DNA from: Acidobacteria bacterium UBA2990
GTDB lineage: Bacteria; Acidobacteriota; Vicinamibacteria; Vicinamibacterales; UBA8438
Assembly: GCA_002347025.1 (NCBI GenBank)
Contig: DEAE01000023.1
Span: 174,254-238,253 of the forward strand
DNA length: 64,000 bases
Reading direction: 5' to 3'
Each line of letters begins with the position of its first letter. Within the stretch, counting starts at the first letter, position 1. Positions 11,022 through 37,020 of this stretch are shown one piece after another. The translations under genes and the position numbers were made by a program. The notes beneath the pieces were generated by a model. That model saw only the letters and a list, made by a program, of their open reading frames with translations, ran no database searches and was not told the DNA's origin.

Positions 11022-11035
11022 GGATTCGGTGCCCT

Positions 11036-15952: not shown

Positions 15953-16019
15953 CAATTTCTCCTGGTTGATGGCCGCTTCCATCAGGATATATTACGCTGT
16001 CGAAGGAGTGTGAGAAGAG

Positions 16020-19849: not shown

Positions 19850-20024
19850 TATAAGCTTGGCACCCTGTCGAAGATCTTATTGGCCTCTTGATGACTCACG
19901 TATTTCCTGGACGTCAGACATTCAAGACCGGTTCCGTATGATGGCCTGCCAAGCAGTTCTGGCAAGAACCTAAAAGACCCGGCGTGCTATTCTGACGGTG
20001 GATTCGATCCAAAAGGGGCGGAAG

Positions 20025-21038
20025 ATGAATAAATCCGACTTTGGCCTGGCGCGGGTGGCGCTGGCGGGATTGGTGCTGGTTGGCTGGCTTCCGAGTCTGG
20101 TACTAGCCCAAGGTGATGGGTATTCCCCACCGCGGAACCTTTATGGGCAACCCGACCTGCAGGGTATATGGGGCAGTAACAGTATTACTCCACTTGAGCG
20201 GCCCGATGTGTTGGTCGACCAAACTACGCTGATTTCCGAGGAATTAGCCCGCGTAGAGGCCACTGCTGAGGCACTATTTGCGTTGGATGCCGGAGATGCA
20301 GCGTTTGGCGATCAGTTTTTTAATGTAGCAATCTCAGATGCTGACAGTTTTACCTCTAGTGACGGTGGAACTGGCAATTACAATCAATTTTGGTTGGTGG
20401 AACGGGACTTTAACAACCGGACGTCCTTGATTGTGGATCCAGTAAATGGACGACTGTCAGCTACTACTCTTGCAGCCAAAGCTGCCCATACATTGGCACG
20501 TAGAGGACGGGGGCAACCTGCAGCATGGACAGAGGATCGTGGGCTGAGCGAAAGGTGTATCACGTTCGGTTTACCCAACTTGCTCGCCGGCTATAACAGT
20601 TACTACCAAATATTTCAGACTCCTGCCTATGTTGTTATTGAACAGGAGCTGATTCACACCACACGGATCATTCCGTTGGATGGTCGGCCGCATGTTAGCG
20701 AAGAGATTCGTCAATGGCATGGCGATTCGCGTGGCCGGTGGGAGGGTGACACGCTAGTGGTAGTAACAAAACAATTTTCTCCTCAAAGTAATTTTCGCGG
20801 CGCTCGAGAGCACCTGGTCTTGGTCGAGCGGTTTACTCGTGTTGCTGATGACGAGATGCATTACGAGTTTACCGTGAGCGATAGCACGACTTGGGAGCAG
20901 ACCTGGACGGCTGTAGTGCCGTGGAAAAGAACTACAGATCCAATGTTCGAGTACGCCTGTCATGAAGGAAATATAGGTATGGAAGGGATTCTGGCTGGAG
21001 CCCGTTCGGAGGAAGTTTCGTCTAGTGAACGTCGCTAG
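20025..21038 (+). CDS. Exported protein of unrecognised family, paralogue 1 of 4 (EYACHEGN family)
   Basis: ORF track gives 19998..21038. I prefer ATG 20025 (MNKSDF). Signal peptide ends LVLAQG. Shares PDLQGIW, TPLERP, YNQFW, RTSLIVDP, ERC, WEGDTLVV, VERFTRV and FEYACHEGN blocks with 21054-22109, 27102-28100 and 36040-37020. Confidence 0.7.
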   Translation: MNKSDFGLARVALAGLVLVGWLPSLVLAQGDGYSPPRNLYGQPDLQGIWGSNSITPLERPDVLVDQTTLISEELARVEATAEALFALDAGDAAFGDQFFNVAISDADSFTSSDGGTGNYNQFWLVERDFNNRTSLIVDPVNGRLSATTLAAKAAHTLARRGRGQPAAWTEDRGLSERCITFGLPNLLAGYNSYYQIFQTPAYVVIEQELIHTTRIIPLDGRPHVSEEIRQWHGDSRGRWEGDTLVVVTKQFSPQSNFRGAREHLVLVERFTRVADDEMHYEFTVSDSTTWEQTWTAVVPWKRTTDPMFEYACHEGNIGMEGILAGARSEEVSSSERR

Positions 21039-21080
21039 ACAACCTTCTGAGAATTGGATGAGAGTGGTCAGTCTTTGTCG

Positions 21081-22109
21081 ATGTTTGATTGTGAGGTGCC
21101 TGTGAGAAATCGAGTCTTCTGGCGAGTGTTGCCGGTTGTGGTGGCAATGGGCGGATGCTTTGCGGTTAGCCCTCAGGGTGCAGCCGGACAGCCAAGGGGT
21201 GAGACTGGTGGCTGGGAGGCGCCCTTCACGGGATGGGGTGTGCCGGATTTACAAGGCATTTGGACCAATGCCACCCTGACACCAATAGAACGACCTGACG
21301 GACTGGGTGATAAAGCCGTGCTATCTAACGAAGAGGCAGCGGAGTTTGAGGTCCGCTCGGCCGAGGGTCGGGCTGCATCTGATCGGTTCGTCCTCGGTAA
21401 TGTTGGTGCCTACAACCAATTTTGGATGGATAGTGGGAAAAGTGTTACGGGTGACCGACGTACGTCATTGATCACGGATCCGCCGGATGGACGAATTCCG
21501 TGGACTCCCGATGGCCGTCGTCGACTCGAGAGCGACATGGCCAGATATGGTGTCGGACCATTTGAAACTTACGAGGATGCCGACACCGGAGAACGCTGTC
21601 TCACCGATGGGCTGCCGTTGGTGCCACTGCAGGGCTACAACATGAATTACCACATCCTCCAGTCCCCAGGATGGGTTGTGATCTTGAACGAAATGTTTCA
21701 CGAATACCGCGCAATACCGGTGGATGGACGAGCACACTTGCGTGAGGGTGTAGCTCAACTATTGGGTGATGCTCGGGGTTGGTGGGATGGGGACACGTTG
21801 GTGGTGGAGACGACGAATTTTTCTGACACTCGTCACTTCCTCTGGCGAGCTACGTGGCGTGGATCTAGACCCTCGCTCCACCTGATTGAACGATTTACAC
21901 GGGTCAGTGACGATACGATCGATTATGAGTTTACGATGACAGACCCAACGATGTTTACACGACCCTGGACGGCACGATTGCCAATGACTACCGACCAGGG
22001 GGCCCGTGGTGTGACCTCTGGTCCGATGTTCGAGTATGCCTGCCACGAAGGTAACTATGGCCTATTGAACATCATGAGAGGAGCCCGGATCGAAGAACTG
22101 GGACGCTAA
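21081..22109 (+). CDS. Exported protein of unrecognised family, paralogue 2 of 4
   Basis: ORF track gives 21054..22109 (TTG). ATG 21081 or GTG 21102 would give a cleaner signal peptide (RVLPVVVAMGGCFAV). It has the same conserved blocks as paralogue 1. It begins 15-60 nt after paralogue 1. Confidence 0.7.
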   Translation: MFDCEVPVRNRVFWRVLPVVVAMGGCFAVSPQGAAGQPRGETGGWEAPFTGWGVPDLQGIWTNATLTPIERPDGLGDKAVLSNEEAAEFEVRSAEGRAASDRFVLGNVGAYNQFWMDSGKSVTGDRRTSLITDPPDGRIPWTPDGRRRLESDMARYGVGPFETYEDADTGERCLTDGLPLVPLQGYNMNYHILQSPGWVVILNEMFHEYRAIPVDGRAHLREGVAQLLGDARGWWDGDTLVVETTNFSDTRHFLWRATWRGSRPSLHLIERFTRVSDDTIDYEFTMTDPTMFTRPWTARLPMTTDQGARGVTSGPMFEYACHEGNYGLLNIMRGARIEELGR

Positions 22110-22193
22110 AGGTAAAACGGTTTTAGGGCTGCGATGTGCGGTTTAGCGGGAGATGGTCAGATATCTACCAGCGCCATTGAATGAGGAAGGGAT

Positions 22194-23228
22194 GTGATGA
22201 CACAGGGGTCTAGATCTTATATGTACCTGTCGTTTCAGGATGATAATGTCGTTTCGATCTTTTCCGTTGATCCGAGAACGGGACAACTGGAGCGGCAGCA
22301 GGATGTAGCCCTTGAGGGTGGGCCCGCGCCGATGGCGATTAGTCCTGATCAGCGGGTGCTGCATGTAGGCAAGCGAGGAAGCCAAGAAATGTCTGGTTAT
22401 CGGATAGACCCGACAACGGGAGGGCTTGAGCATATCCGGACAATTCCCTTGCAAGGTGAGCCGGTCTACGTCGCAATGGACCGCACCGGTCGGTTCGTTC
22501 TGTCGGCCTACTACTATCAAAGTACCGCTGCGGTCCACCGTGTGGGTCCGGATGGGGTTGCTGTCTTCCCGCCGGTAGAGTGGAGATATACGTCTCATGG
22601 CGCCCACGCTATTCAGACAGACCGGTCGAACCGATTCGCGTTTGTGCCCCATATCGCCAATAGAGGACCGAATGCGATCTTCCAATTTCGGTTTGATGAG
22701 ACCAGCGGACGCCTAACTCCGAATAAGCCGGAACGGTATTCGCCGACTGCTTATCTGGGCCCTCGTGCCCTGGTTTTTCACCCGAACCTTGACATCGTCT
22801 ATTTCTCTGATGAGCAGGGTGGCAGCGTCAGTGGGTATTCCGTTGATAGTCGTAACGGGATATTGACGCCGTTCCAAACGATTTCTACCCTTCCAGAGAA
22901 CTACGCCGAACCCAACACTTGTTCACAGATAGCGATGCATCCATCTGGTCGATTCCTGTACGCACCCAATCGCGGTCACAATAGTGTGGCCAGTTTTGCT
23001 GTCGACCCTGTAAACGGTCGGCTCACAGCGACAGGTAGGGTTGCCACGGAGCCCGTGCCAAGAGCTTTCAATCTAGACCCAGCTGGTGGCTTCTTGTATT
23101 CCACCGGGTTGGACTCCGGTTTGATCGCTTCTTATCGAATTGATCAGGAGACCGGCGAACTAACTCCTCTCGAGACCTACCAAGGGGGCAACAGGCCGAT
23201 GTGGGTCTTATTCGCAAGTTTTGCCTGA
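22194..23228 (+). CDS. 7-bladed beta-propeller lactonase family protein (Pgl/YbhE-like)
   Basis: 344-aa ORF. Recurrent blade signature (VSIFSVDPRTGQL, MSGYRIDPTTGGL, VSGYSVDSRNGIL, VASFAVDPVNGRL, IASYRIDQETGEL) is typical of the lactonase propeller family. Confidence 0.7.
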   Translation: MMTQGSRSYMYLSFQDDNVVSIFSVDPRTGQLERQQDVALEGGPAPMAISPDQRVLHVGKRGSQEMSGYRIDPTTGGLEHIRTIPLQGEPVYVAMDRTGRFVLSAYYYQSTAAVHRVGPDGVAVFPPVEWRYTSHGAHAIQTDRSNRFAFVPHIANRGPNAIFQFRFDETSGRLTPNKPERYSPTAYLGPRALVFHPNLDIVYFSDEQGGSVSGYSVDSRNGILTPFQTISTLPENYAEPNTCSQIAMHPSGRFLYAPNRGHNSVASFAVDPVNGRLTATGRVATEPVPRAFNLDPAGGFLYSTGLDSGLIASYRIDQETGELTPLETYQGGNRPMWVLFASFA

Positions 23229-23317
23229 ATTCCCTGATTACAAAGATTGGTAGAGGCTGACCGCGTTCAGTTGAAGTGACTCGAGCTGGACCTCAGATTC
23301 ATCTGCGAGACCTAATC

Positions 23318-24958
23318 ATGCACGGTTTGATGATGGAGTATCCGTTAACGATCGACCGGATAATCGACCATGCAAACCGTCTATTTACGCACAAACAAAT
23401 TCGAACCAGGCAAGTCGATGGAAGGGTGCACGAGTATACATATGGGGATCTTTATCGTCGTAGCCGTCGTTTGGCGAGTGCTTTGGTGAAACGAGGGATC
23501 AAGACGGGTGATCGGGTGGCGACGTTTGCATGGAATCATTACCAACACTTGGAGATGTACTTCGGAATTCCCGGGGCTGGAGCTGTTTGCCATACGTTGA
23601 ATGTGCGGCTGTCACCAAGACAACTGGCTTACATCGCATCTCATGCCGAGGACAGGATCGTGTTTGTGGACGCCACGGTGCTGCCTCTGTTCGAACCGAT
23701 AGCCAGGCAGCTCGAATGTGTAGAACAGTTTGTAGTGGTTAATGCCCAGAATGAAGGAGAAACAAGTTTACCCAACGTGGTGCACTACGAAGACTTCTTG
23801 ACTGAAGGTGACGAAGAGTGCGAGTGGCGCTCGACTGACGAGCAGATGGCGATGGGGTTGTGTTATACGAGTGGCACTACTGGAGACCCCAAGGGGGCAC
23901 TGTATAGCCATCGATCGATGTACTTGCACACACTAGGTGCGAATCAAGCGATGGCATTGGGGCTGACCGAAAACGATGTGGTCATGCCGGTCGTGCCGCA
24001 GTTTCATGCGATGGCCTGGGGTTTACCGTATGCCTGTCCTTTAGCCGGGGCTGATGTTGTGATGCCAGGGCCAGATCTACGACCGAGCATATTGGCTGAT
24101 TTGATCGAGTCTTATCAGATTACGGTAGCAGCGGGAGTGCCTAGCATTTGGAACGGGCTCTATCATGAGCTCAAGGAGAATCGTCGAGATCTTTCAAGTC
24201 TTCGAGCGCTAGTCGTTGGCGGTTCAGCGATGCCGCGGGCTCTCATAGAGGCTTACGAGCAAGACTTGGGTGTGAACGTGGTACATGCTTGGGGTATGAC
24301 GGAACTCTCGCCATTAGGTACAGTTTCCAGGCTTCATCGCCAGCATCTCATGCTGGGCAAGGCCGAGCGGTGGGATGTGAAGGCACGTCAAGGGGTGCCG
24401 TTAGGAGGAGTCGAACTACGAATTGTCGGTGATGCGGGAACTCCGCTGCCCTGGGATGGCAAGACGATGGGAGAACTTCAGGCCAGGGGGCCATGGGTGA
24501 TCAAAAGCTATTTCAAGCATGAGCCTACTCCGGAGCATTTTACTTCAGACGGTTGGTTCAGGACAGGTGATGTGGCTACGATGACATCGGATGGGTTTCT
24601 AACCATTACAGACCGGACGAAAGACTTGGTGAAGAGTGGAGGCGAATGGATTTCGACCGTCGCACTTGAAGGCGAGCTGATGGCCCACGACCACGTATTG
24701 GAGGCCGCCGTGATTGCTGTGCCGGACGAGAAGTGGTCAGAGCGCCCCTTGGCGGTGGTGGTTCCAATCCAAGCTGGCGAGGTGACGGAGGGAGAGTTGC
24801 GAGATTACTTGCTGAAACGGTTTGCGAAGTTTGAAGTGCCAGAGAAATTCATCTTTGTCGAAGAACTCCCAAAGACGAGTGTGGGGAAGTTTGATAAGAA
24901 GTTGCTCCGAGTCCGGTATGCTGAGAAGAAATTGCAATCAGGAGAAATCCACCCGTGA
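23318..24958 (+). CDS. AMP-dependent acyl-CoA synthetase/ligase (fatty-acid-CoA ligase-like)
   Basis: ORF track gives 23276..24958. ATG 23318 is likely. AMP-binding motif [16 protein letters not shown]...ITDRTKD, and C-terminal [10 protein letters not shown]. Confidence 0.85.
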
Positions 24959-25728
24959 AGATGTCTAAGTTGTTGATCGGCATGGCGGTCGTTGTCGGGG
25001 CAGTGTCGGCATTTCCGGTGTTGGCTCAGGAACCACTGCCGGCCGGCGGTTTATATGCTGGCTCCCCCTACTTGGGGGACCTTCGAAACTCGTTGGTCTA
25101 CGGGGACATCTGGGAAAGGCCAGAGCTTTCGAAAAGGGACCGGAGCCTCATCACAATTGGAGTGCTTCAGGCGTTAACAAGAGAAGAACTGGCCATTCAT
25201 ATTCCCCGAGGGCTTGATAACGGCCTAACACCTGCAGAGATTTCAGAAATCATCCTTCATGTCACGTTTTACGCCGGTTGGCCAACAGGGGTACAGGCTT
25301 CGCTGACCGCGGCTGAAGCTTTCCAGGAGCTGGGTGTTTCGATTGGCCCGCTGAGGAGGGCCCCCGCCGAATCAGCCCGAGTCCTTATTGTGCCTGACCA
25401 AACTGGTAATCGCGCTTATGCGGCGGTCCCGAAGTTGGGTGAACTGCGCAATAGTGTTCTGTTTGGGGATGTTTGGGAGCGACCGCAGCTGTTGAAACGA
25501 GACCGTAGTTTGCTTACGATGGCGGTTCTTCAGGCACTATATGCAACAAACGAATTGCGGATTCATATTGGTAGAGCACTCGACGAGTATGGTGTGACGG
25601 CCCAAGAGGTGTCTGAAACAATACTGCATGTGACGTTCTACGCAGGTTGGGCTGCTGCGATTAATGCTGGTCGACTCGCGGCTGATGCGTTTGAGGAACG
25701 TGGAGTAGATTTCAGCCGCCTACAGTGA
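24955..25728 (+). CDS. Tandem carboxymuconolactone decarboxylase (CMD/AhpD-like) domain protein, exported
   Basis: 257-aa ORF. GTG 24955 overlaps the upstream stop (GTGA). Signal peptide ([11 protein letters not shown]). Two homologous halves: [26 protein letters not shown]...[11 protein letters not shown] and [26 protein letters not shown]...[11 protein letters not shown]. Confidence 0.75.
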
Positions 25729-25870
25729 GCGCAGGAAATGGTCGATTCCGTCTTTGATTGGTGCAGGGCGACCTTGACCTGCTGCTACTTCGAGGAACCT
25801 GAGGACACAGGTCTGAGGAACTCTGCCGATGTGTTGAGTAATGTGAGCTCCGCGGCGTCACGCGAAAGCT

Positions 25871-26989
25871 ATGGAGAATGCAATCATGTGCTCTCAGATA
25901 AATAGAGAATTATTCAGGTTTGTCGGTAATCTGGTGGTGTTGGTGAACTTCGCATCTGTTGCAGTTGTCGGACAATCATCGACCACGAATCCTTATCGAG
26001 CTACGTTTGGATGGGAAAAACTTCAGGAAGGTCGGGTCTTGGGGACGGTCAGCGGAGTCTTTCCAGACCCAGACGGAGCGCATCTCTGGGTCTTAGATCG
26101 CTGTGGTGCGAACCAGTGTGCCGGTTCAGATCTAGATCCCATTATGAAATTCGACCTCGCTGGGAATGTGGTAGAGAGCTTTGGGGCAGGACTATTCGCA
26201 TTTCCCCACGGGTTTTTTCTAGACCATGAGGGCTTCCTCTGGGTCACTGAAGGGGGTTCTCATGGGGACGCTAGGGCGACACTAGGTGAGAGCATGGGGA
26301 TTGGACATCAAGTCGTGAAATTAAACCAGCGGGGTGAGGTTGTGATGCGACTTGGTGAAGCGGGAGTATGGGGAGATGACGAGGCCCATTTTAATGGTCC
26401 TTCGGGTGTGGTGGTTGGCCGAGATGGAGATATTTGGGTCTCTGACGGACATCGCGGCGGTAACAACCGAATTCTGAAATTTTCGAGCGACGGTAGGTTT
26501 TTACTGGCGATCGGAGGCGGAGTCGGAAGTGAGAGCAAAGAGGCGACAGGCTTCAGTGATCCGCATGATATTAAGATGGATTCTCAGGGCCGAGTGTATG
26601 TTGCCGACCGCGGTAACAGTCGGATCCAGGTATTCAACGGGACCGGAGACTTGCTCTATATCTGGACCCATTACGGAAAGCCGAGTGGTCTGTTTATAGA
26701 TCGCAATGACATTCTTTATGCGGGTGATGGCTTGTCCGGTATGGTGCGAAGTGGTCCACCAGATAACTGGCGTAGCAATCTGGGTTGGGAGAAGGGCATT
26801 CGGATTGGCGATTTAAAGACGGAACAAGCATGGGTGACCCATTTTATTCCCCAGCACGATATAGATGTAGGGGCTGGAATTGAGTTTCTCGGTGTGGACT
26901 TTGCGGGCAATATTTACGCTGGCGAAGTCAGTCGACGGCGGTTGGTCCGGTATGTGCCATTTAGGCCTTCTGAATTGGGAGCTCGCTGA
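25871..26989 (+). CDS. NHL-repeat propeller protein, exported (paralogue of 38571-39731)
   Basis: 372-aa ORF. Hydrophobic N-terminus. DRCGANQCAGSDLDPIMKFDLAGNVV block is shared with 38571-39731. NHL blades VYVADRGNSRIQVF and IWVSDGHRGGNNRILKF. Confidence 0.7.
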   Translation: MENAIMCSQINRELFRFVGNLVVLVNFASVAVVGQSSTTNPYRATFGWEKLQEGRVLGTVSGVFPDPDGAHLWVLDRCGANQCAGSDLDPIMKFDLAGNVVESFGAGLFAFPHGFFLDHEGFLWVTEGGSHGDARATLGESMGIGHQVVKLNQRGEVVMRLGEAGVWGDDEAHFNGPSGVVVGRDGDIWVSDGHRGGNNRILKFSSDGRFLLAIGGGVGSESKEATGFSDPHDIKMDSQGRVYVADRGNSRIQVFNGTGDLLYIWTHYGKPSGLFIDRNDILYAGDGLSGMVRSGPPDNWRSNLGWEKGIRIGDLKTEQAWVTHFIPQHDIDVGAGIEFLGVDFAGNIYAGEVSRRRLVRYVPFRPSELGAR

Positions 26990-27101
26990 ATCTGTGCACT
27001 GGCTAGCCAGTTGAGTATGGCTTTTGAATGGCACCTAGGTGGCATAGGCTGGCTAGGGAGCTGGTTGGGTTGTTAACTACCCTTGAAGCTGGGAGGGAAC
27101 G

Positions 27102-28100
27102 ATGAAAAGGAGAATTGGTGTTCTGGTCGGACTGATAGTGGCTGGTATTGCCTTACCGACTGTTGTGGCCGCCCAACCAGGAGATGGAGAGGCGTGGGTG
27201 ATGCCTCGGACCTTCTGGGGGGAACCGGACCTTCAAGGTCTTTGGACATCGGCCACCCTGACTCCTCTTGAACGACCTGAACAACAGGCAGATGTCGATT
27301 CGTTGACGAATGAAGAAGCCGCGGCCCTTGAACAACGCTCTGCAGCGAACCGTGCTGCGAATGATGGTAAATCAGCACCGGGGAGTGTGGGTGGATATAA
27401 CCAGGTCTGGCTAGATGCGGGCACCCAAATTACCGGGAGCCGGCGAACTTCTTTGATTGTCGAGCCACCCGAAGGGGTGATCCCATGGGTGGCTGGGGCC
27501 GAAGCGGTAAGCGATCGAGAGCGGGCTCGCTATGGTGTTGGGCCATTTGAGTCATACACGGACCCAGACACGGGTGAACGATGCATCACCGACGGTCTCC
27601 CCAATATGGTCCCCCTACAGCCCTACAACATGAATATGCAGATTTTACAGACCCCTGAGCAGGTGGTGATGCTACACGAGATGTATCACGAGCTTCGGGT
27701 GATTCCGTTGGATGGCCGACCGCTAACCGGAATAGCGCAGTGGACGGGGGAAGCGCGAGGGCATTGGGATGGAGACACGTTGGTGGTTGAGACAAACAAC
27801 TTTGTTGACAAGCCAAATGCCTACTGGAGTGCGCCGTGGCGGAAAGCTCGGTCTACTTTACGTCTTGTGGAGCGATTCACCCGTGTTGGCCCTCAGTCGA
27901 TTGATTACACGTTCACACTTGAGGACCCAGTCGTGTTCACACAGCCTTGGACAGCTTCGGCGCCGATGACAACAGACCAGGCTTCGAGGGGTGTTACCTC
28001 AGGGCAGATTTGGGAATATGCCTGCCATGAAGGTAACCACGCGATGATCAACGTTCTGAGCGGAGCCCGGACTGCAGAGATCAGGGCCGGCGGTGAGTGA
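27102..28100 (+). CDS. Exported protein of unrecognised family, paralogue 3 of 4
   Basis: 332-aa ORF. GGGAGGG RBS. Signal peptide (GIALPTVVAAQP). Blocks PDLQGLW, TPLERP, YNQVW, RTSLIVEP, ERCITDGLP, WDGDTLVVET, VERFTRV and WEYACHEGN. Confidence 0.75.
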   Translation: MKRRIGVLVGLIVAGIALPTVVAAQPGDGEAWVMPRTFWGEPDLQGLWTSATLTPLERPEQQADVDSLTNEEAAALEQRSAANRAANDGKSAPGSVGGYNQVWLDAGTQITGSRRTSLIVEPPEGVIPWVAGAEAVSDRERARYGVGPFESYTDPDTGERCITDGLPNMVPLQPYNMNMQILQTPEQVVMLHEMYHELRVIPLDGRPLTGIAQWTGEARGHWDGDTLVVETNNFVDKPNAYWSAPWRKARSTLRLVERFTRVGPQSIDYTFTLEDPVVFTQPWTASAPMTTDQASRGVTSGQIWEYACHEGNHAMINVLSGARTAEIRAGGE

Positions 28101-28109
28101 TCACTGATG

Positions 28110-29834
28110 TCATTGGACTGGCAGGGCAAAACTGAGGATCAAGTCGCCGCCTCGGCGCCCACGATCACCTCCACCTGAAGCCACCGTCACAAATTCCTGT
28201 CCGTCGACCATGTAGACTGCTGGAGACGCGAAAATCCCAGCGCCGGTGTTGTAGCGCCAGAGTTCTTCACCTGTTCTGGCGTCAAAGGCAAAGAAATAGC
28301 CCGCAGTATTGCTGCCGGTGCCAACAAATACAACACCACCTTTGGTTACGACAGCGCCTGCCTGCCCATAGCCTTCAAAAATCTGTCGCCACACGAGTTC
28401 CCCCGTGGTGGGGTCGTAGGCTGAAAAATAGCCCTTTGGTCCGCGTCCCGAATTAAACGGTTGATCAATTGCGTTGACGTAGAGGAGGCCGGTGTCTGGA
28501 CTGTGAGCAATGGGCCCGTAGCTGGCGCCGCCACCATAGCCTGGCGAAAAGATGACGTCTCTTGTGTTGACCGGGAGCGGTGTGAACTGTGGTAACAGCC
28601 GTTTGCCTGCAGCGTGGTCGGCGGGGATATCGGTGGGGAAGACCGGGGACACCGGCTCCATGCGGTCGCCGTTGGCCTTATGGGGGATCGGCTGGGTAGG
28701 GAAGGGTATCTCACCTTCGCGGTCCGTTGTTGTTGGGACAGGTGTTTCGATAATGGGGTGGACAGGCTCACCGGTCTGTCGATCAAGGATGTAGAGCCAG
28801 CTGTTCTTGTTGGCTTGTGCCAATGCTTTGATTGCTTTCCCGTCTACCTCCATGTCAAACAGGATCGGTTGCTGGCCATTGTCGTAATCCCACACATCAT
28901 GGTGTACCTGCTGGTAATACCATTCCATCTGCCCTGTTTCGAGGGAGAGCGCTACGATGGAATCTGTGAAGAGGTTCGACCCTGCCCGTTTGGTACTATC
29001 CCCGAAAGGGTTCCCGACAGCGGCGTAGAGCAGGCCTAGATCAGGGTCAATCGAAGGAGTTTCCCAGATTCCACCTCCGTTTCGGCCGCCTCCCACCCAA
29101 GTTGGTCCTGCGATATCCCATCCTTGGTCGTTCTCGTCTTGGGGAATCGTGTTGAAGTGCCACAGTACCTGACCGGTAAGGGCGTCAATGGCAAGGACAT
29201 GGCCACCTGGAATCATGCTTTCGCTACGGGTGGAGCCTACGTAAAGAACTCCATCGTGAATCTGGGGGGCACTTGTGAACCAATATCCCATTGAGATTGC
29301 GGTCTCGACCTCGGGATAGCGGAGTCTGAGGACATCAAGAATGGGACTTGCTTGGCCATCCACGCCAAATCCCTCAATTGGTTCACCAGTTTTGGCGTCT
29401 AAGGCGAACATAAAAGATCCAGCTGCACTGTAAACAATGCCGTCGGCGTAGGTTACCCCACGATGTCGGAAGATATACCCCTCGCGCCTGGCCCCGCCGA
29501 GCAGGTCGGTGACGTCATACAGCCAGAGCAGGTGACCATTAGCCGCATCAACGGCATAGACGCTTCCCCGTGAATCAGTAACATACATGACCCCATCGAC
29601 AATCACTGGGGTTGTTTGGTTGCTCACGCCGTCTATCACGCCGTGCTGGAATAGCCAGCGGGGTGTCAGACGATGAGCGTTTTCCGGAGTAATCTGGTCG
29701 GTCTCAGCGAAGCGGCTACCGGCTAGATCAAAATTATGCAGTCGCCAGTCAACGTCTTGTGCTGCGGCATTGGAGACTACGGCGAGGGAGAGTATGAGGC
29801 TGTACCTGTAAGCGAAGTCCCACTTGAAACTCAT
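28110..29834 (-). CDS. PQQ-dependent dehydrogenase (quinoprotein, soluble periplasmic type)
   Basis: ORF track gives 28110..29870. ATG 29834 (MSFKWDF) is preceded by GGAGGA at a 9-nt spacing. Signal peptide ends AAAQD. The quinoprotein N-terminal pattern (W..H..D..GSRF) and VHHDVWDYD block are present. There is no C-terminal cytochrome c domain. Confidence 0.75.
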   Translation of the reverse strand: MSFKWDFAYRYSLILSLAVVSNAAAQDVDWRLHNFDLAGSRFAETDQITPENAHRLTPRWLFQHGVIDGVSNQTTPVIVDGVMYVTDSRGSVYAVDAANGHLLWLYDVTDLLGGARREGYIFRHRGVTYADGIVYSAAGSFMFALDAKTGEPIEGFGVDGQASPILDVLRLRYPEVETAISMGYWFTSAPQIHDGVLYVGSTRSESMIPGGHVLAIDALTGQVLWHFNTIPQDENDQGWDIAGPTWVGGGRNGGGIWETPSIDPDLGLLYAAVGNPFGDSTKRAGSNLFTDSIVALSLETGQMEWYYQQVHHDVWDYDNGQQPILFDMEVDGKAIKALAQANKNSWLYILDRQTGEPVHPIIETPVPTTTDREGEIPFPTQPIPHKANGDRMEPVSPVFPTDIPADHAAGKRLLPQFTPLPVNTRDVIFSPGYGGGASYGPIAHSPDTGLLYVNAIDQPFNSGRGPKGYFSAYDPTTGELVWRQIFEGYGQAGAVVTKGGVVFVGTGSNTAGYFFAFDARTGEELWRYNTGAGIFASPAVYMVDGQEFVTVASGGGDRGRRGGDLILSFALPVQ

Positions 29835-30106
29835 TGACTGTTTCCTCCGACGGAGAACGTTTTTGAACACCGTGCCAGTCTATCCAGAGGTGTGGTTGTT
29901 CGCAAATTGAAAAACAACGACGGGTCTCTGAGATCGGTTCTTCGAGAACCTGGTGACAACGATTGTCCAAAGATTGTAATAGTGAGTCTCTCTCACGCCA
30001 AGAGATTACCGATGTGACGGGGGGGGATGTTGGCGAAATAGGTGTTTAATGCCCTAAAATGGCCTCGATCTAAAGAATTAGTCTTTGGGCGTGGTGAGGA
30101 TACCTT

Positions 30107-31642
30107 ATGCAGATTCGAAATCAACGTAGCTTGAGGATAGCCGGACTCGTCACTGTGTTGGGGATCTCCCTTCCGGGGCTGCCAGAGGCTGGGCAGGGAG
30201 CGGGATCGACGCTTGAGACTTCGACCAGGCAATCTGTGAGAAAGGTATCTGGTGAACTCGTTGAGGCGGTCAAAAGTCAAAGCTACGACAGGCTGCGAGT
30301 GTTGCTCGAAGAGACTGTCGATGTCGACGATGTTCAAGGCGATGGAACAACGGCCTTACATTGGGCGGTTCATCGCAACGACCTGCAGGCCCTCGATCTA
30401 CTCCTTGAAGCTGGTGCAGATGTGAATGCAGCGAACACCCTTGGTGCTACACCGATCTGGCTAGCCTCCATCAATGGCGATCGGTCGGTAGTGTCTCGTT
30501 TGCTCAAAGGTGGTGCTAATCCGAACACCTCACTTTTGATGGGTGAAACCCCGTTAATGTCGGCGGCCAGGTCGGGGGGCATCGATACGGTCAATTTGTT
30601 GCTGAGGTGGGGTGCGGACGTCGACTTAGCTGAATATGAACGGGGGCAAACGGCTTTGATGTGGGCGGCTGCCCAGGGACATGTGGATGTGGTACTCGCA
30701 TTGGTGGCTGGCGGAGCGGATCTCCATGCTCGAACCCGAGTGTGGTATCAACTGGAAAATACAGCAGGGAATACCAACCCCATTGGGAACTTTAGGATGG
30801 CTCATGGTGGGTCCACCGCCCTCCTGTTTGCTGCGCGGAATGGTGATGTTGCGACGGCCCGTAGTCTGATTGAAGCAGGTGCAAACGTTGATGATGTTTC
30901 CGCTTCCGGTACTAGTGCGCTAGTGATTTCTGCACACAGCGGCCACGAGTCTCTCGCTCTTTACCTAGTTAACCAAGGGGCGGATCTCAATGCGAACCTT
31001 GCTGGATATACAGCGTTACATGCTGCGGTTCTGAGGGGGCAGTCCCCGCTGGTTCGCGCCTTGCTTGCAAACGGGGCAGATATCGAAGCGGTTGTCCAAA
31101 AAGGCACACCAGGCCGGCGATTTAGTGCAGATTTCAGCATTCGACATCAGGCTGTAGGCGCTAATGCTTTTTGGTTGGCTGCGAAATATGGAGAATTGGG
31201 AATCTTAGAAATGTTGTTGCAGGGTGGAGCAGATCCGTTTGTGAGGCCTGTAAGTGGGGTGTCATCCTTGCAAGCGGCGATGGGTCGTTCGGCGATTCCC
31301 CAAGAGAACCGGCGGAATCGAGTTGGAGTGCCTCGGCCAGATAGAGGCCTTCATGAAGATTTAGTGCTTCGACTGGCAGAGGTCGTGCTGGATTTGGGTG
31401 TCGATGTCAATGCGGTTGACCAGCGGGGGGACACGGCCCTCCACGATGCTGTTCGTAATGGGTGGGAGTCGGTCGTGAAGCTTTTAGCTGTTCGTGGTGC
31501 TGATTTGGGTGCACGGAATGAGCGCGATCAAACAGCTTTGGCTTTAGCAGAAACACTGCAGCCGGTGCCTGGCACCAACGGGCTTCGCACTACACGGCCG
31601 AAGATTGCTGAAATCCTACGTGGCTTCGGTGCCGAAAACTAA
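30107..31642 (+). CDS. Ankyrin-repeat protein, exported
   Basis: 511-aa ORF. GGTGAGGA RBS. Hydrophobic signal-like N-terminus. Many ANK repeats (GTTALHWAV..LLLEAGADVNA, GETPLMSAAR..LLLRWGADVD, GDTALHDAVR..LLAVRGADL). Collinear with 54291-55787. Confidence 0.8.
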   Translation: MQIRNQRSLRIAGLVTVLGISLPGLPEAGQGAGSTLETSTRQSVRKVSGELVEAVKSQSYDRLRVLLEETVDVDDVQGDGTTALHWAVHRNDLQALDLLLEAGADVNAANTLGATPIWLASINGDRSVVSRLLKGGANPNTSLLMGETPLMSAARSGGIDTVNLLLRWGADVDLAEYERGQTALMWAAAQGHVDVVLALVAGGADLHARTRVWYQLENTAGNTNPIGNFRMAHGGSTALLFAARNGDVATARSLIEAGANVDDVSASGTSALVISAHSGHESLALYLVNQGADLNANLAGYTALHAAVLRGQSPLVRALLANGADIEAVVQKGTPGRRFSADFSIRHQAVGANAFWLAAKYGELGILEMLLQGGADPFVRPVSGVSSLQAAMGRSAIPQENRRNRVGVPRPDRGLHEDLVLRLAEVVLDLGVDVNAVDQRGDTALHDAVRNGWESVVKLLAVRGADLGARNERDQTALALAETLQPVPGTNGLRTTRPKIAEILRGFGAEN

Positions 31643-32045
31643 ATTTTTTTTCAGATGACGCTGGTGCTGTCCTTCCGACTTCCCGATAACCGCGGTATTT
31701 CCGGACAATCTGTAGTTTAGTTCGGTCCCTGGAATTGGTTCGAGCCTGACCAGAATGGTTCGCCTAATCTCGCGAGGCGGTTCATGAGTGGGAGAGTCGG
31801 TCTATAGGTTCGCCTCTTCATCGCCCCTAAGGCTCTGGAGGTGGGAACTCGTAAGCCGAGCAGGGAAGGCGGACCTTTCTGAGGCTGCGGCCTTTATCGA
31901 AGCTGGTGTTGTCAAACGCATTTATTGGTCGACAGACGGGTGTGGCCATCACTATCATTTTTTAGAGAGTCAGGACTGGTTCGCTAGGGTGTGCAATCGC
32001 TGAGTGACCCCGGCACTACGCCTGTTCCGGCGCCTATAATCGGCC

Positions 32046-33698
32046 TTGGAGGTAATGCATATGACAAGCATGCTGTTAGACCGTCGGAGATTCTTGGCCG
32101 GGACGGCTGGAGCGATGGGCGGGTCGATATTCGGGCGGTTACCTCTTGGTGCAATGATGGAACAAGGTGCACCACCGGCACCAGTAGACTGGGACCCGGG
32201 TTCGGTAAGACATTTACTGCCGAGTGCTAGTGACTCTCGCATCTTGGTGAAGGTGTCGTTTGACCACCCTCTTTCTGCAGCTCCGAGTCTACGACTTGAT
32301 ACGAACGAAGTGGTCGGACGCATGAGTGATACAAGGGGTGAGTATTGGCAGTTTGATGCAAGGGGGTTAGATCCTGGGCGGCGTTATGAACTGTCTCTTC
32401 ACAGCGCTGAGGGTGGGGCCCTGTGCGATCCATGGCCCCTTGCAACCTTTCCAGCTCCGAGTGCGGCACCAGATCACTTCCGGGTGCTGTTTTTTAGCTG
32501 TGCGGGTGGGCCCGGTGGGTCCTATTCAGGAATAGGGAACCGTCAAGGATTCCTTCCAACAGCGATTCGCAATCGTTTACTTCGGAGAGCTTTGTCGTTC
32601 GAACCTGATGCTGCGGTTGCCAATGGGGATCATATTTATTGGGATTTGCACACATGGTTGGGTGAGAACGTTGGACATCTTAGCGCTAGTGGTCGCCGTT
32701 CAAATTTTGATTTCTCTGGTTCGGTGTTCGGTTCAAGTAATGAGGTCGCTATGAAAGCTGCGGCCGGCCCCCAGATCGTTCCGGTGTACGGCAGTGATTT
32801 CCGGTCTACACCCGTGTTCTTTCTGCAGGATGACCATGACCATTGGGAGAATGACGCAGTCACGGATGAGATAGCTAGTTTTCCTGTGGCATGGTTCCAG
32901 TTGCAACTTGCCCGTGCCACCCAACAGCTCTACTACCCGGAATTTCTACCAGATGCTCAGCGTCCCATCGGACTGCCGTGGTCGGCAGTGGATGACCGTA
33001 GAGTGTCTGAAAGCTTCGGGACGATTCGGTTCGGACGGTTAGCCGAGATTTTGTTGTACGACGTTCGGCGGACGATGAGTTTGGGCGGGCCGAATGCAGT
33101 ATTCGTCGATTCCCAGGTCGAACGATGGCTTCTTGAGCGGACGCGGGCACCGGAATTAGCTCATGTGGTGCATGCCCCGTCGAATCCGTTTGGTTGGAGC
33201 GCCGGGAAATGGGGAGAGTGGTACCCAGATATCCTCGATAGAGACAGCGGCAGTCTCACAACGGCGGTGGAGAAGCCCTACTGGCAGCAGGGTTGGTTAA
33301 GCCAGCACGACCGATTGGTGCAGGCAATCGGGTCACAACAAAACCGGGTGCCACTCGTGATTAGTGGTGATTTACACGCCATCGGTGTGGGGCGTATGCA
33401 TAGGGCCGGAGTGGTGGATTTGAATACAAGGCCAATCACCACGGTGCTCAGCGGACCCATTGGAACATCGGTGCGAGGGTTCCCGTCGGTTGTGCGAGGA
33501 ATCGGGGCTACACCGCCTGAGCATCTTGATGTTGAGGAGTCGGTTGCACCGATTGAAGAACACGGATTTACTTTGGTTGACTTTCACCCAGAGAGTATTG
33601 GCCTACGCCAGTTCAAGTGGGATGTGAAGTCACAACCTGTTGAGGCGATCGACCAGTTAGAGGCCTTCTACACCACCCAATTGCCACGTCCGTCTTAA
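32046..33698 (+). CDS. Tat-exported PhoD-like metallophosphatase (tentative)
   Basis: 550-aa ORF; the start is possibly ATG 32061. Twin-arginine signal (DRRRFLAGTAGA). Metallophosphoesterase-like blocks NGDHIYWD, FLQDDHDHWEND and ISGDLHAIGVG resemble PhoD-family motifs. The call is by motif only. Confidence 0.5.
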   Translation: MEVMHMTSMLLDRRRFLAGTAGAMGGSIFGRLPLGAMMEQGAPPAPVDWDPGSVRHLLPSASDSRILVKVSFDHPLSAAPSLRLDTNEVVGRMSDTRGEYWQFDARGLDPGRRYELSLHSAEGGALCDPWPLATFPAPSAAPDHFRVLFFSCAGGPGGSYSGIGNRQGFLPTAIRNRLLRRALSFEPDAAVANGDHIYWDLHTWLGENVGHLSASGRRSNFDFSGSVFGSSNEVAMKAAAGPQIVPVYGSDFRSTPVFFLQDDHDHWENDAVTDEIASFPVAWFQLQLARATQQLYYPEFLPDAQRPIGLPWSAVDDRRVSESFGTIRFGRLAEILLYDVRRTMSLGGPNAVFVDSQVERWLLERTRAPELAHVVHAPSNPFGWSAGKWGEWYPDILDRDSGSLTTAVEKPYWQQGWLSQHDRLVQAIGSQQNRVPLVISGDLHAIGVGRMHRAGVVDLNTRPITTVLSGPIGTSVRGFPSVVRGIGATPPEHLDVEESVAPIEEHGFTLVDFHPESIGLRQFKWDVKSQPVEAIDQLEAFYTTQLPRPS

Positions 33699-33787
33699 AT
33701 TGCAACTGGTGGTTCAAGAGGGTTCGATAATTAACCAACGAATCCACTTCTAATGGTGTGGGACTTCGAATTATAAAGGAGGAGCCG

Positions 33788-34789
33788 ATGAGTCAAAATC
33801 GTCGCGAATTTCTTGCGAGCGCCAGTGCTGTAGGAGTGGCTGCAGCAACGGCTCATGCTGCCAGGCTGCGGGGAACTGCGGCTCAGCTAGGAAACTTTGG
33901 TGATATACGAATGGTTCGGACCGATGTTCTGGAGATCGGCTATGAACAGCACGGCAGCGCATCTGGGTTTCCGATTATCTTGCTACATGGATTTCCCTAT
34001 GATGTGCGGTCATGGGATGGGGTAATTCCCCCATTGGCCGCTCGTGATTACCGTGTCGTTGTGCCTTACCTGCGGGGTTACGGTCCGACCCGATTTTTGG
34101 ACACGAATACACCACGTACGGCGGAACAAGCTGCTATCGCCCAGGATGTGATTGATCTTGCCGACGCCCTCGGTCTAGACCAATTTGCCCTAGCTGGATT
34201 TGACTGGGGTAATCGGGCGGCCTGTATTACCTCTATTCTTCATCCCGAGAGGGTTCGGGCGCAGGTAGCGATTGGGGGGTACTCGGTCCAAAATACGGTT
34301 ACTCCCGGGCGACCAGCAGGCGCCGCTAGCGAGGCGCGCCTTTGGTACCAGTGGTATTTCAATACTGAACGAGGCCAAAGGGGCTTAACTACGAATCGGC
34401 ATGACATTGTTCGTTATCTGTGGGAAACGTGGTCCCCTTCTTGGGATTACACGGATGAAGCCTATGGAAAGTCATCTCCGTCATTCGATAATCCGGATTT
34501 TGTCGATGTTGTGATTCATTCCTATCGGCATCGGCACGTAAATGTACCCGGTGAAGAACGATTTCTTGCGATGGAACGGCGACTGGCTCAACGCCCTCCG
34601 ATCGATGTCCCCGCTGTTGTGCTCCGAGGATTAGAGAGTGGCTTCGGCCGGCCGTCGACTGACCCTTCAGGGGATGAAGATCGTTTCAGGCGCCTTGTGG
34701 CACGCCGCCTCGTTGAAGGTGCTGGGCATGATTTGCCGGTGCAGCGACCTGAGACCGTGTCAAATGCACTTTTGGAATTGTTAGGTTAG
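33788..34789 (+). CDS. Tat-exported alpha/beta hydrolase, epoxide-hydrolase-like
   Basis: ORF track gives 33758..34789. ATG 33788 is preceded by AGGAGG. Twin-arginine signal (NRREFLASASA). HGxP oxyanion motif (LLHGFPYD). Asp nucleophile elbow GFDWGN. C-terminal GAGHD. Confidence 0.7.
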   Translation: MSQNRREFLASASAVGVAAATAHAARLRGTAAQLGNFGDIRMVRTDVLEIGYEQHGSASGFPIILLHGFPYDVRSWDGVIPPLAARDYRVVVPYLRGYGPTRFLDTNTPRTAEQAAIAQDVIDLADALGLDQFALAGFDWGNRAACITSILHPERVRAQVAIGGYSVQNTVTPGRPAGAASEARLWYQWYFNTERGQRGLTTNRHDIVRYLWETWSPSWDYTDEAYGKSSPSFDNPDFVDVVIHSYRHRHVNVPGEERFLAMERRLAQRPPIDVPAVVLRGLESGFGRPSTDPSGDEDRFRRLVARRLVEGAGHDLPVQRPETVSNALLELLG

Positions 34790-34809
34790 GGCGAAGGCTA
34801 GGCGTTGGG

Positions 34810-35898
34810 ATGAAGTTAACTTTGAGGAATATTCGTGCTCGACCCGTGCTGTTACCGTTGGAGCGACCGATAGTCGCCAGAATCGCAACCATTAAGGACT
34901 GGCCGTTGATTCTGATTGATCTTGAGACGGAGGAGGGCATCACCGGTCGTAGCTATTTGGAGCCGTACATTCCAAGGACTGTGGAGTATCTGGTGCGTGC
35001 CCTTCATGACTTGGGAGCTTTGTTAAAGGGAACCCAAGTTGCTCCGACTGAGCTGTTTGATTTAGCTCGGAAGTCCCTTCATTTTGTAGGTTACGAGGGT
35101 CTGTCGGCGATTGCGGTCTCAGGGCTGGATATGGCCGCGTGGGATGCCTTGGCGAAGGTGGCCGACCAGCCGCTCTGTGAATTGTTAGGTGGCTCGGTTG
35201 GTGCAGTAAGGGCCTATAACAGTAACGGTCTGTGGTTGCAGGACCCTCCTGTTGTAGCTGATGAGGCGGCTGTGCTTATTGAGGAGGGCCAATTTTCCGG
35301 GCTTAAGCTGCGTCTTGGTCGAGACCGATCGGCAGAAGATCTAGAGACGGTCAGGGCTGTCCGTGACACCGTGGGTGATCACATTCACCTAATGGTGGAT
35401 TTCAATCAAGGCCTTGATTTTGCTGAGGCTCATGAGCGACTTCCTGCTCTTGATGATTTGGGTTTGACCTGGATTGAGGAGCCCCTGGTATACGAAGATC
35501 TTGAGGGCCACAAGAAGCTGGCCGTTGAACTGCGGACCCCGATTCAAATTGGTGAAAATTTCTACGGACCTCAAGCCCTTCACAGAGCTATTGCCGTTGG
35601 TGCTTGCGATTACGTTATGCCTGATTTTATGCGCATCGGTGGAATAACAGGCTGGCAGCGGGCTGCAGCTTTTGCTGGAGTGTTCGGGGTGCCGGTGTCA
35701 ACACATTTGTATCCAGAGGTTGCGGCGCATGTTATGAGGGTTACCGAGACTGCTCACTGGCTGGAATGGCAAAATTGGGCCGATCCAATTTTGCAAAAGC
35801 CCTACGAAATTTCCGGGGGTGAGCTGCACATCCCAGACGTGGCAGGCGTCGGCTTAGACTGGGATGAGGATGCTGTCGATCAGCATCTAATGAGGTGA
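34810..35898 (+). CDS. Mandelate racemase / muconate lactonizing enzyme family (enolase superfamily)
   Basis: 362-aa ORF starting 20 nt after the previous gene. Metal-ligand blocks MVDFNQG, WIEEP and IGENF, plus the N-terminal capping-domain pattern. Confidence 0.8.
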   Translation: MKLTLRNIRARPVLLPLERPIVARIATIKDWPLILIDLETEEGITGRSYLEPYIPRTVEYLVRALHDLGALLKGTQVAPTELFDLARKSLHFVGYEGLSAIAVSGLDMAAWDALAKVADQPLCELLGGSVGAVRAYNSNGLWLQDPPVVADEAAVLIEEGQFSGLKLRLGRDRSAEDLETVRAVRDTVGDHIHLMVDFNQGLDFAEAHERLPALDDLGLTWIEEPLVYEDLEGHKKLAVELRTPIQIGENFYGPQALHRAIAVGACDYVMPDFMRIGGITGWQRAAAFAGVFGVPVSTHLYPEVAAHVMRVTETAHWLEWQNWADPILQKPYEISGGELHIPDVAGVGLDWDEDAVDQHLMR

Positions 35899-36039
35899 CT
35901 TATTAAAAACGATTTCGTCCAGAGCTTGCGTTTGTTGTCAACGAGGTCTACTGTATCTGCTGTGGCAGGACTGAGAAGTCGGCTCGATGTCACTCGGTGT
36001 GGTTGTCCGAGGGCTAGATGTTTCCACTGGGGAGGATAA

Positions 36040-37020
36040 ATGTACAAAAAGTGTCTCATTGTGTGTTTTATGCTAGCGCTAGCTGTATCGGTGCAGGCGC
36101 AGTCCACCGATCGCACCATGCCGATGCGAACGCCAGACGGGCAGCCTGATGTTTCTGGAATTTTTACTTTCCGTACCATCACTCCATTCCAACGGCCCAG
36201 CCAGTTTGCCGAACTGGAAACTTTAGATCCCGAGACTGCTGCAGCATTTGAAGCTTCAGAACGTACTCGACAGAACCGCGATCTTTTCGATCCCGAAAAG
36301 GGTTCTGGTGGCTACGCCCCTCGGTCGGAGGGTGGGGTGTTGTCTTATAACGAATTTTGGTACGAACGAGGTATAGAGCTCACTTCCGACAAACGGACCT
36401 CTTTGATCGTCGATCCTCAGGATGGTCGCTTGCCCGCGCGAACCGAGGAGGCTCAAATGGCGGCTCAAGAGAGAGCGGCCTATCGTCGAGAGCATATGTA
36501 TGACTCCTATGAAAATAGGAGCTCTGGAGATCGCTGCTTGATGGGCTTCAATGCGGGCCCTCCAATGCGGTCCAGTTCATACAATAACAACGTCATGATT
36601 TTTCAGTCGCCGGGTTATGTGACGATTCTTAATGAGATGGTGCACAACGCTAGGGTAATTCCGATTGGGGACAGCTCGGAGCTTCCATTCCCACAGTACA
36701 GCGGTGTGTCGAGAGCCCATTGGGAAGATGAAACGCTTGTTATTGAAACCAGTCAATTCCGAGGAGGAAGTAGTGGTCTGACCTCGACCAGTATGCATCT
36801 AGTCGAACGACTTACGCGCATAGATCCGGACACGGTCGCTTATGAGTACACCGTGACAGACCCTACGGTCTATACCGCGCCTTACACCGTGATGATGCCA
36901 TTTCGCCGAACCGACGGGCCGCTGTTTGAGTATGCTTGTCACGAGGGCAATATTGGCTTACATGGCATTTTGGCCGGTGCACGTAATCTAGAAAATATGG
37001 GCAGAGAATTGCGCCCATGA
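36040..37020 (+). CDS. Exported protein of unrecognised family, paralogue 4 of 4
   Basis: 326-aa ORF. GGGGAGGA RBS. Signal peptide (LALAVSVQAQS). Blocks PDVSGIF, TPFQRP, YNEFW, RTSLIVDP, DRC, WEDETLVIET, VERLTRI and FEYACHEGN. Confidence 0.75.
   Translation: MYKKCLIVCFMLALAVSVQAQSTDRTMPMRTPDGQPDVSGIFTFRTITPFQRPSQFAELETLDPETAAAFEASERTRQNRDLFDPEKGSGGYAPRSEGGVLSYNEFWYERGIELTSDKRTSLIVDPQDGRLPARTEEAQMAAQERAAYRREHMYDSYENRSSGDRCLMGFNAGPPMRSSSYNNNVMIFQSPGYVTILNEMVHNARVIPIGDSSELPFPQYSGVSRAHWEDETLVIETSQFRGGSSGLTSTSMHLVERLTRIDPDTVAYEYTVTDPTVYTAPYTVMMPFRRTDGPLFEYACHEGNIGLHGILAGARNLENMGRELRP

Follow-up and report, generated by a model that had tools for sequence, protein, structure and literature searches.

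Four genes lying within 17 kb of an acidobacterial genome encode paralogues of one exported protein and are members of a very large, hitherto unannotated exported protein superfamily. They were found in a stretch of 64,000 nucleotides from Acidobacteria bacterium UBA2990 (contig DEAE01000023.1, positions 174,254 to 238,253 of the forward strand), hereafter the window, which belongs to a marine (Tara Oceans) Acidobacteriota metagenome-assembled genome (MAG); identical contigs occur in several samples. The reading of their role that we favour, with confidence just short of even, is that these proteins are periplasmic, disulfide-stapled calycin-like barrels, present as many paralogues, that bind and possibly transform a small polar organic molecule, and that in many genomes are coupled to the putative metal-binding protein DUF6152. 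The four copies, each defined by an open reading frame (ORF) and by the family hidden Markov model (HMM), are the following.

20025-21038, plus strand: copy 1, class A, 337 amino acids (family HMM E 2e-159; the longest ORF starts from a GTG at 19998)
21081-22109, plus strand: copy 2, class A, 342 amino acids (the longest ORF, from a TTG at 21054, encodes 351 amino acids)
27102-28100, plus strand: copy 3, class A, 332 amino acids; the modelled protein
36040-37020, plus strand: copy 4, class A, 326 amino acids

Class A, the EYACHEGN type, is defined in this analysis by an ordered series of blocks: GxPDxxGxW, RTSLIxDPxDGxxP, R-C, WxGDTLVV, ERFTR, EYACHEGN and a C-terminal helix. All four copies carry these blocks in this order. 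In copy 1, GxPDxxGxW is found at 20145-20171 and EYACHEGN at 20949-20972; EYACHEGN is located at 22032-22055 in copy 2, at 28014-28037 in copy 3 and at 36928-36951 in copy 4. The motif blocks listed in an earlier, sequence-only reading of this DNA are all present and in order as well, except that copy 3 has PDLQGLW where GIW had been given. The four proteins align over their entire length, 72 columns being invariant. Between pairs, identity is 45% (copies 1 and 2), 46% (1 and 3), 40% (1 and 4), 56% (2 and 3), 40% (2 and 4) and 38% (3 and 4), copy 4 being the most divergent (38-40% to the other three). An HMM built from the four copies and run against the six-frame translation of the whole window recovers just these four, with E values of 1e-159 to 1e-165, and no fifth family member; chance is thereby excluded.

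Copies 1 and 2 are separated by 42 bp only. A GGAGG-like ribosome-binding site is located 5' of the ATG codons at 20025, 27102 and 36040, and a weaker one is found before 21081. At the N-terminus, all four proteins display a basic n-region, a hydrophobic core (maximal 12-residue Kyte-Doolittle score of 2.3-3.1) and an end made of small residues and Gln, in a Sec-like arrangement; the predicted signal peptide of copy 1 is MNKSDFGLARVALAGLVLVGWLPSLVLAQ. The description of the locus as four exported paralogues, each with a predicted Sec signal peptide, is therefore upheld by the ORFs, by the full-length alignment and by the HMM count. Each copy carries a cysteine pair: Cys178 and Cys312 in copy 1 (codons 20556-20558 and 20958-20960), Cys173 and Cys321 in copy 2 (21597-21599 and 22041-22043), Cys161 and Cys308 in copy 3 (27582-27584 and 28023-28025), and Cys166 and Cys300 in copy 4 (36535-36537 and 36937-36939). 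Residue numbers given below are those of copy 3.

The family is not represented in curated collections. None of the four copies has a match at E<=1 in Pfam-A (2025) or NCBIfam (20.0), and 137 diverse members searched against Pfam and NCBIfam yield, at E<=0.1, scattered noise only (best E 0.004, at most two members per family). Weak Dioxygenase_C matches in 2 of the 137 members (E 0.083) were dismissed as noise. No relative is found among PDB sequences, either with single sequences or with profiles of 4 and 137 sequences. Literature searches for 'YACHEGN' return zero papers with the motif, and the source names of all relatives read 'hypothetical protein'. Hence, the family had rightly been called unrecognised, and the check that was proposed, an HMM of the four copies followed by database searches, finds no characterised relative, yet a very large family. 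Indeed, the family HMM detects 23,006 clusters (50% identity) at E<=1e-3, 11,163 at E<=1e-10 and 2,210 at E<=1e-30, and a scan of one genome per species gives at least 584 loci. The locus analyses described below rest on the best-matching 80 of these at least 584 loci, which hold 158 family genes. The 80 loci belong mostly to Vicinamibacterales and other Acidobacteriota, to Bryobacterales and to Thermoanaerobaculia, but also to Gamma- and Alphaproteobacteria and Gemmatimonadales, often with several loci per genome. Paralogue clustering is general, since 44 of the 80 loci contain two or more family genes, with a maximum of eight (L007). Three family loci (L012, L021 and L039) are on contigs labelled Klebsiella pneumoniae, Bordetella and Bifidobacteriaceae MAGs; because of the distribution of the family elsewhere, these contigs are probably mis-binned or mislabelled.

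The 158 family genes include a divergent second subfamily, class B, which carries an E-[YF]-C-[VI]-E motif and is about 275 amino acids long. Class A and class B are homologous (hhalign probability 100%, E 1e-44), and class B, too, is very large and lacks annotation. Curated profiles match class B and fusion members only through their extra domains. The universal core comprises the cysteine pair, R199, G216, W222-x-G, E257-R258 and D275. In the 150 best 50%-identity representatives, R160, C161, E193, G216, E257, E305, C308 and E310 are invariant and about 57 positions are at least 85% conserved; H309 is found in 139 of 144 of the best representatives. Within the 80-locus set, C161 is present in 147/147 and C308 in 145/145 aligned members. 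Of the class A proteins, 108/109 and 112/128 have exactly two cysteines in the mature core, as have 104/105 of class B, about 95% overall, and the exceptions mostly have four. Their spacing is 134-148 residues in the class A mature core; every protein in which DUF6152 is fused to the barrel also has exactly two cysteines, 137-146 residues apart. Exactly two cysteines in an exported protein is a classic disulfide signature. Because of cysteine count and parity, together with the signal peptides, the pair most likely forms a disulfide between the segment before the barrel and the C-terminal segment.

In contrast with the cysteines, the histidine that follows the second of them is confined to class A. 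The position of His309 is occupied by V/I/L/N/W/Y/T in class B and the wider family. After the second cysteine, class B has a short unrelated tail, and the DUF6152-barrel fusion proteins stop 4-11 residues past it. The HEGN motif and the C-terminal helix are class A-specific, because class B and fusion proteins diverge or end after the second cysteine, and for the same reason an essential His-Glu dyad, catalytic or metal-binding, would be at most class A-specific. The sequence-only reading had proposed that an invariant cysteine pair and an invariant His-Glu mark a disulfide or a metal or catalytic site. The cysteine pair is found everywhere examined and fits a disulfide; by the condition of refutation set in that reading, the His-Glu part does not hold beyond class A, the histidine being V/I/L/N in class B.

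The four copies arose by old duplications and are kept under purifying selection, as had been anticipated from the divergence between them. Copies 1, 3 and 4 have relatives 80-89% identical in other assemblies, compared with 38-56% between paralogues. The closest relatives reach 81% for copy 1 and 89% for copy 4, and only about 60-63% for copy 2, which is a divergent offshoot of the copy 3 lineage. The ratio of nonsynonymous to synonymous substitution rates (dN/dS) was measured against the syntenic locus L092, the DNA of L001-L004 being identical to the window. Copy 3 has a ratio of 0.13 and copy 4 of 0.05, both within the 0.00-0.38 of neighbouring genes. These values are confined to the comparison with L092 because synonymous sites are saturated between paralogues at 38-56% amino-acid identity. 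In the same comparison, the dS of copy 3 against L092:1048-2049 is 0.25, three to five times that of its neighbours (0.04-0.09), which hints at local recombination or gene conversion.

A structural framework for these conserved residues is provided by a model of copy 3. A first AlphaFold model made from a shallow alignment (pLDDT 67.5) was replaced by an AlphaFold2 model from a 137-sequence alignment (pLDDT 88.5, pTM 0.85). This model has strands at 46-49 and 119-121, eight more within 178-286 (about 10 strands in all), and a helix at 310-331; the region between the first strand and the barrel is largely helix and loop. When the PDB is searched with Foldseek, nearly all the top ranks are calycin-type barrels (FABP, CRBP, CRABP and tardigrade SAHS, and nitrophorins with the first model), with probabilities up to 1.0 and target-normalised TM scores of 0.4-0.5 over 112-122 columns. 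A Foldseek search of BFVD returns nothing. The predicted barrel core of about 110 residues is thus weakly calycin-like, and the modelled fold as a whole has no solved relative. At the sequence level, the G-x-W located on the predicted first strand 46-49 (G46 99% and W48 86% conserved) corresponds to the calycin signature, and arginines R199, R258 and R261 are conserved; in calycins, the G-x-W of strand A packs against an Arg or Lys of the last strand. E193, R199, E257, R261 and Y269 alternate in register with hydrophobic core positions on the predicted strands, which suggests that they form a buried polar cluster facing the interior of the barrel.

Only one recurrent partner is strongly linked to the family. 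Neighbouring ORFs were clustered and antisense shadow ORFs were removed; clusters 1-3 and 5 were discarded as mostly antisense or alternative-frame shadow ORFs, largely of family and PQQ (pyrroloquinoline quinone) genes, part of cluster 2 being DUF6152. The most recurrent neighbours in the 80 loci are PQQ dehydrogenases (24), metallo-beta-lactamase-fold hydrolases (9) and NHL propellers (8), besides the DUF1592/DUF1552 pair, ankyrin proteins, DUF5916 and Cu2_monoox_C-like proteins. Adjacency was assessed by counting neighbours within 300 bp of a family gene and by re-placing each neighbour at random within its own locus, a permutation that controls for genome-wide gene abundance. A custom HMM finds DUF6152 in about 20 loci, and 22 of 23 cases are this close to a family gene, where 3.5 would be expected (P <0.0005). 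The corresponding values are 9 of 31 for PQQ dehydrogenases (4.5 expected, P 0.025) and 4 of 8 for NHL propellers (1.1 expected, P 0.016), and no other neighbour family shows significant adjacency in this test. Thus, DUF6152 is the sole strongly linked partner and the PQQ dehydrogenase and NHL links are marginal. A strong PQQ dehydrogenase link had been considered and was downgraded, the within-locus excess being only about two-fold and the genes being abundant in these lineages, where MAGs of Tara Acidobacteria are reported to encode as many as 70 PQQ dehydrogenases of the lanthanide type (PMC11996626).

DUF6152 (PF19649) is a small exported protein of a very large family that is not homologous to the barrel. 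Its gene is almost always adjacent to, or fused with, a gene of the barrel superfamily: it is directly downstream of class A or class B genes with gaps of about 0-50 bp, and DUF6152 forms the N-terminal part of fusion proteins with the barrel that are encoded by five L007 genes and in L015. The linkage spans Acidobacteriota, Alphaproteobacteria and Gammaproteobacteria, including plasmids of cultured Novosphingobium humi and Croceibacterium atlanticum. The reciprocal test gives the same picture: for two DUF6152 proteins picked independently, the upstream gene is a class A gene with the full FEYACHEGNYG motif, and one of these loci has the order class A, DUF6152, class B. Invariant in DUF6152 are H1-H2 at the predicted mature N-terminus, D8, N26-P27-H28, W44 and E47. 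Copper sites built on an N-terminal histidine are known in CopC, LPMO and PmoB, and by analogy the His-His pair is probably an N-terminal-His metal site. No PDB relative of DUF6152 was found, and literature searches for it returned zero papers. The DUF6152 loci examined include L007 (Proteobacteria UBA1148), L095, L101, L085 and L086. No DUF6152 is detected in the window with the custom HMM.

Other arrangements recur or are fused. Class A, class B and a third type are found side by side in L087-L089, and an AMP-binding gene precedes the class A gene in L093-L100. One fusion in L011 consists of a signal peptide, a cytochrome c domain (CQLCH) and a class B domain. P0021 is an in-frame fusion of an NHL propeller with class A, devoid of internal signal peptide, and P0142 has an N-terminal CxxCH/terpene-cyclase-like domain. 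Cu2_monoox_C-like (PHM-like) CxxCH proteins are present in related loci (L013:11153-12550 and L016:2759-4267). An exported ankyrin-repeat protein, a PSD/DUF1592 (PSCyt) protein and a DUF1552 protein are encoded at 54291-59553 of the window; this trio recurs by class B genes in unrelated genomes (L087, L088 and L059).

According to the reading that we favour, the Sec-exported mature protein would be built on a calycin-type antiparallel beta-barrel whose first strand bears the G-x-W of GxPDxxGxW, a motif located just past the signal peptide. Class A would have an insertion of about 125 residues, made of loops and helices, between this strand and the remaining barrel, and a long C-terminal helix starting at H-E-G-N. 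The cysteine before the barrel (R-C) and that after it (E-Y-A-C) would form a disulfide stapling the C-terminal segment to the body. The putative buried cluster Glu193/Arg199/Glu257/Arg261/Tyr269 could then bind, and possibly transform, a small polar or carboxylated organic molecule in the periplasm. Paralogues would serve different substrates or different partner enzymes. In many genomes DUF6152, with its probable metal site, would work with the barrel, the window copies acting without it.

Several observations weigh against this proposal. The Foldseek search of the PDB gives no match at E<=1e-3 (best 1.4e-3), with query-normalised TM scores of about 0.2 and rmsd (root-mean-square deviation) of 4-6 A. 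One family member, P0165, has a Lipocalin_5 (PF13924) domain fused at its C-terminus; the family profile compared with this domain gives an hhalign probability of 0.5% (E 0.13), and no family member matches PF13924 via its own barrel. Conservation exceeds what is common in calycins that bind ligands, which would better suit an enzyme or a protein with a fixed partner. Finally, gene neighbourhoods vary, and DUF6152 is missing near the majority of class A genes, the four described here among them.

The genes that surround the four copies in the window bear on a second explanation.

25871-26989, plus strand: PAL-like NHL propeller with six blades, 112 bp upstream of copy 3 (Pfam NHL E 9e-21)
28110-29870, minus strand: PQQ-dependent dehydrogenase, converging on copy 3 across a 9-bp gap (Pfam PQQ E 2e-109)
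22194-25728, plus strand: seven-bladed lactonase, AMP-dependent ligase and exported protein with two carboxymuconolactone-decarboxylase (CMD) domains, between copy 2 and the NHL gene (Pfam)
34810-35898, plus strand: MR/MLE protein (enolase superfamily, cycloisomerase-like), 141 bp upstream of copy 4 (Pfam MR_MLE_C E 8e-54)

The genes at 22194-25728 are separated by intergenic gaps of 84 and 47 bp, followed by a 4-bp overlap, and because of this spacing they probably share a transcription unit with copies 1 and 2; promoter and terminator scans of the window stay at background level. The last of them, the double-CMD protein (24955-25728), overlaps the stop of the AMP-ligase gene by 4 bp and carries a signal peptide; it is an unusual exported protein of the carboxymuconolactone-decarboxylase family. 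The best natural PDB match of the NHL protein is the PAL domain of PAM (3fvz, E 6e-16). The order NHL then copy 3 is mirrored by the P0021 fusion, and the propeller is a possible functional partner of copy 3. It is one of three paralogous exported NHL six-bladed propellers of the window (16791-18029, 25871-26989 and, on the minus strand, 38571-39731), whose best natural PDB relative is the PAL domain. Copy 4 is preceded by an alpha/beta-hydrolase gene and the MR/MLE gene; the synteny of the latter is kept in L001-L004 and L092, and it may be functionally linked to copy 4. A 550-residue ORF at 32046-33698, likewise syntenic in L001-L004 and L092, has a Tat-like RRRFLAG signal; apart from a weak PhoD-like match it is unannotated.

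From such a context, the family could consist of periplasmic enzymes (hydrolases, lyases or isomerases) of lactone, aromatic or alicyclic acid catabolism with a buried Glu/Arg/His active site, the paralogues acting on related intermediates beside lactonase, CMD, MR/MLE, alpha/beta-hydrolase, HpcH aldolase, the PAL-like NHL lyase and PQQ dehydrogenase. We consider this possible but on balance doubtful; it overlaps the catalytic version of the favoured barrel proposal. The window is rich in genes of beta-ketoadipate-like and lactone chemistry, and the conservation of charged residues across thousands of sequences is unusually high, but these charges could equally be structural salt bridges. In P0021 an NHL propeller and class A are truly fused, NHL and PQQ genes show a marginal excess next to family genes, and HpcH, NHL and AMP-ligase genes recur by family genes in unrelated genomes. 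However, neighbours vary from locus to locus and none but DUF6152 is strongly enriched, the AMP ligase and MR/MLE proteins are of cytoplasmic type whereas the family is exported, and no homology to any enzyme family is found. Moreover, much of the adjacency to PQQ dehydrogenases may be background in lineages with up to 70 of them per genome (PMC11996626).

A third explanation, which we judge unlikely, places a metal (for instance copper) or redox site at the two cysteines, with His309 added in class A. DUF6152 would deliver or share the metal, and the whole would serve metal trafficking or form a metal-dependent oxidase passing electrons to c-type cytochromes. The tight linkage and occasional fusion of DUF6152 speak for it, as do the invariant residues of DUF6152 already listed, whose pattern recalls the copper sites of CopC, LPMO and PmoB. 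So do the class B-cytochrome c fusion of L011, the CxxCH in the N-terminal domain of P0142, and one locus with Redoxin, DsbH-like thiol oxidoreductases and a quinohaemoprotein. In contrast, the replacement of His309 by V/I/L/N in class B and its loss from the fusions rule out a common Cys2-His site, the cysteine count is that of a disulfide, most class A genes lie apart from DUF6152, and no known copper or haem motif (CxxCH, C-x(n)-H-x(n)-M) is present. A related reading would make class A, class B and DUF6152 a new periplasmic metalloprotein system, in which the His-His of DUF6152 holds a metal (e.g., copper) and the barrels bind the organic substrate for oxidative chemistry wired to c-type cytochromes. 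This reading is unlikely too; were it true, few uncharacterised enzyme systems of soil and marine Acidobacteriota and Proteobacteria would be larger, and the four window copies would be partner-independent or trans-acting variants.

Still less probable, and in our view very unlikely, is that the family exists to assist the expanded PQQ dehydrogenases, for example as an electron-transfer or redox partner or as a chaperone for a cofactor, a lanthanide or PQQ, and has co-expanded with them in Acidobacteriota and marine Gammaproteobacteria. PQQ dehydrogenase is the commonest identifiable neighbour (24/80 loci), it is directly downstream in L049 and L016, and copy 3 abuts one. Lineages with up to 70 PQQ dehydrogenases (PMC11996626) also dominate the distribution of the family. 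Nevertheless, adjacency reaches only about twice the within-locus expectation (P 0.025), many family loci are devoid of any PQQ dehydrogenase, the PQQ dehydrogenase of L007 already has its own di-haem cytochrome c, and the family has no redox cofactor motif. As to the window itself, it encodes two full PQQ dehydrogenases and two PQQ_2-type propellers (28110-29870 on the minus strand, 44737-46779, 14594-15982 on the minus strand and 52731-54077). The enzyme at 28110-29870 has a sub-threshold match to the NCBIfam 'acido-empty-quinoprotein group A', and its VWDYDNG (Asp-x-Asp) motif is of the lanthanide type. A separate idea of a single-cysteine haem c or cupredoxin site was rejected on motif grounds, as the class A mature core contains no CxxCH and no His...Cys-x(n)-His-x(n)-Met copper site, there being only two cysteines, with the histidine directly after the cysteine and lost in class B.

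Whatever its role, the family occurs in abundant bacteria of soil and ocean (Vicinamibacterales, Bryobacterales, marine Gammaproteobacteria and Gemmatimonadota). Once its function is found, tens of thousands of 'hypothetical proteins' would receive an annotation, and part of the periplasmic oxidative metabolism that is unusual in lineages with dozens of PQQ dehydrogenases may be explained as well. Near-invariant motifs, the cysteine pair, the pairing with DUF6152 and the cytochrome c and NHL fusions make a well-defined and experimentally tractable target. Elsewhere in the window, the stretch 9043-13737 carries a corrinoid-dependent methyltransferase set (URO-D-like protein, homocysteine S-methyltransferase-like protein, B12-binding protein and RACo reductive activator), which suggests methyl-group or demethylation metabolism.

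Compared with known systems, the favoured barrel proposal is closest to the calycins (lipocalins, FABP/CRBP/CRABP, nitrophorins and avidins). The predicted antiparallel barrel core of about 110 residues and the G-x-W on its predicted first strand would be common to both. However, the family has no sequence or profile similarity to calycins, is twice the size and is far more conserved, and class A has an insertion of about 125 residues after strand A as well as a long C-terminal helix. Many lipocalins are secreted and have a disulfide that ties down the C-terminal segment, as the cysteine pair of the family would do. FABP and CRABP hold a carboxylate with an Arg/Arg/Tyr site, of which the putative buried Arg and Tyr residues are reminiscent. 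The Lipocalin_5 domain fused in P0165 suggests related or cooperating small-molecule-binding roles. As for DUF6152, its fold differs from the barrel, with a secondary-structure pattern that looks OB-like. Finally, ZinT/YodA proteins are periplasmic calycin-like barrels with His-rich N-terminal metal sites. The family has no sequence or Foldseek match to them, and here the His-rich element belongs to another protein, which most class A genes lack; even so, a barrel working with the His-His of DUF6152 would be a conceptual parallel to ZinT/YodA.

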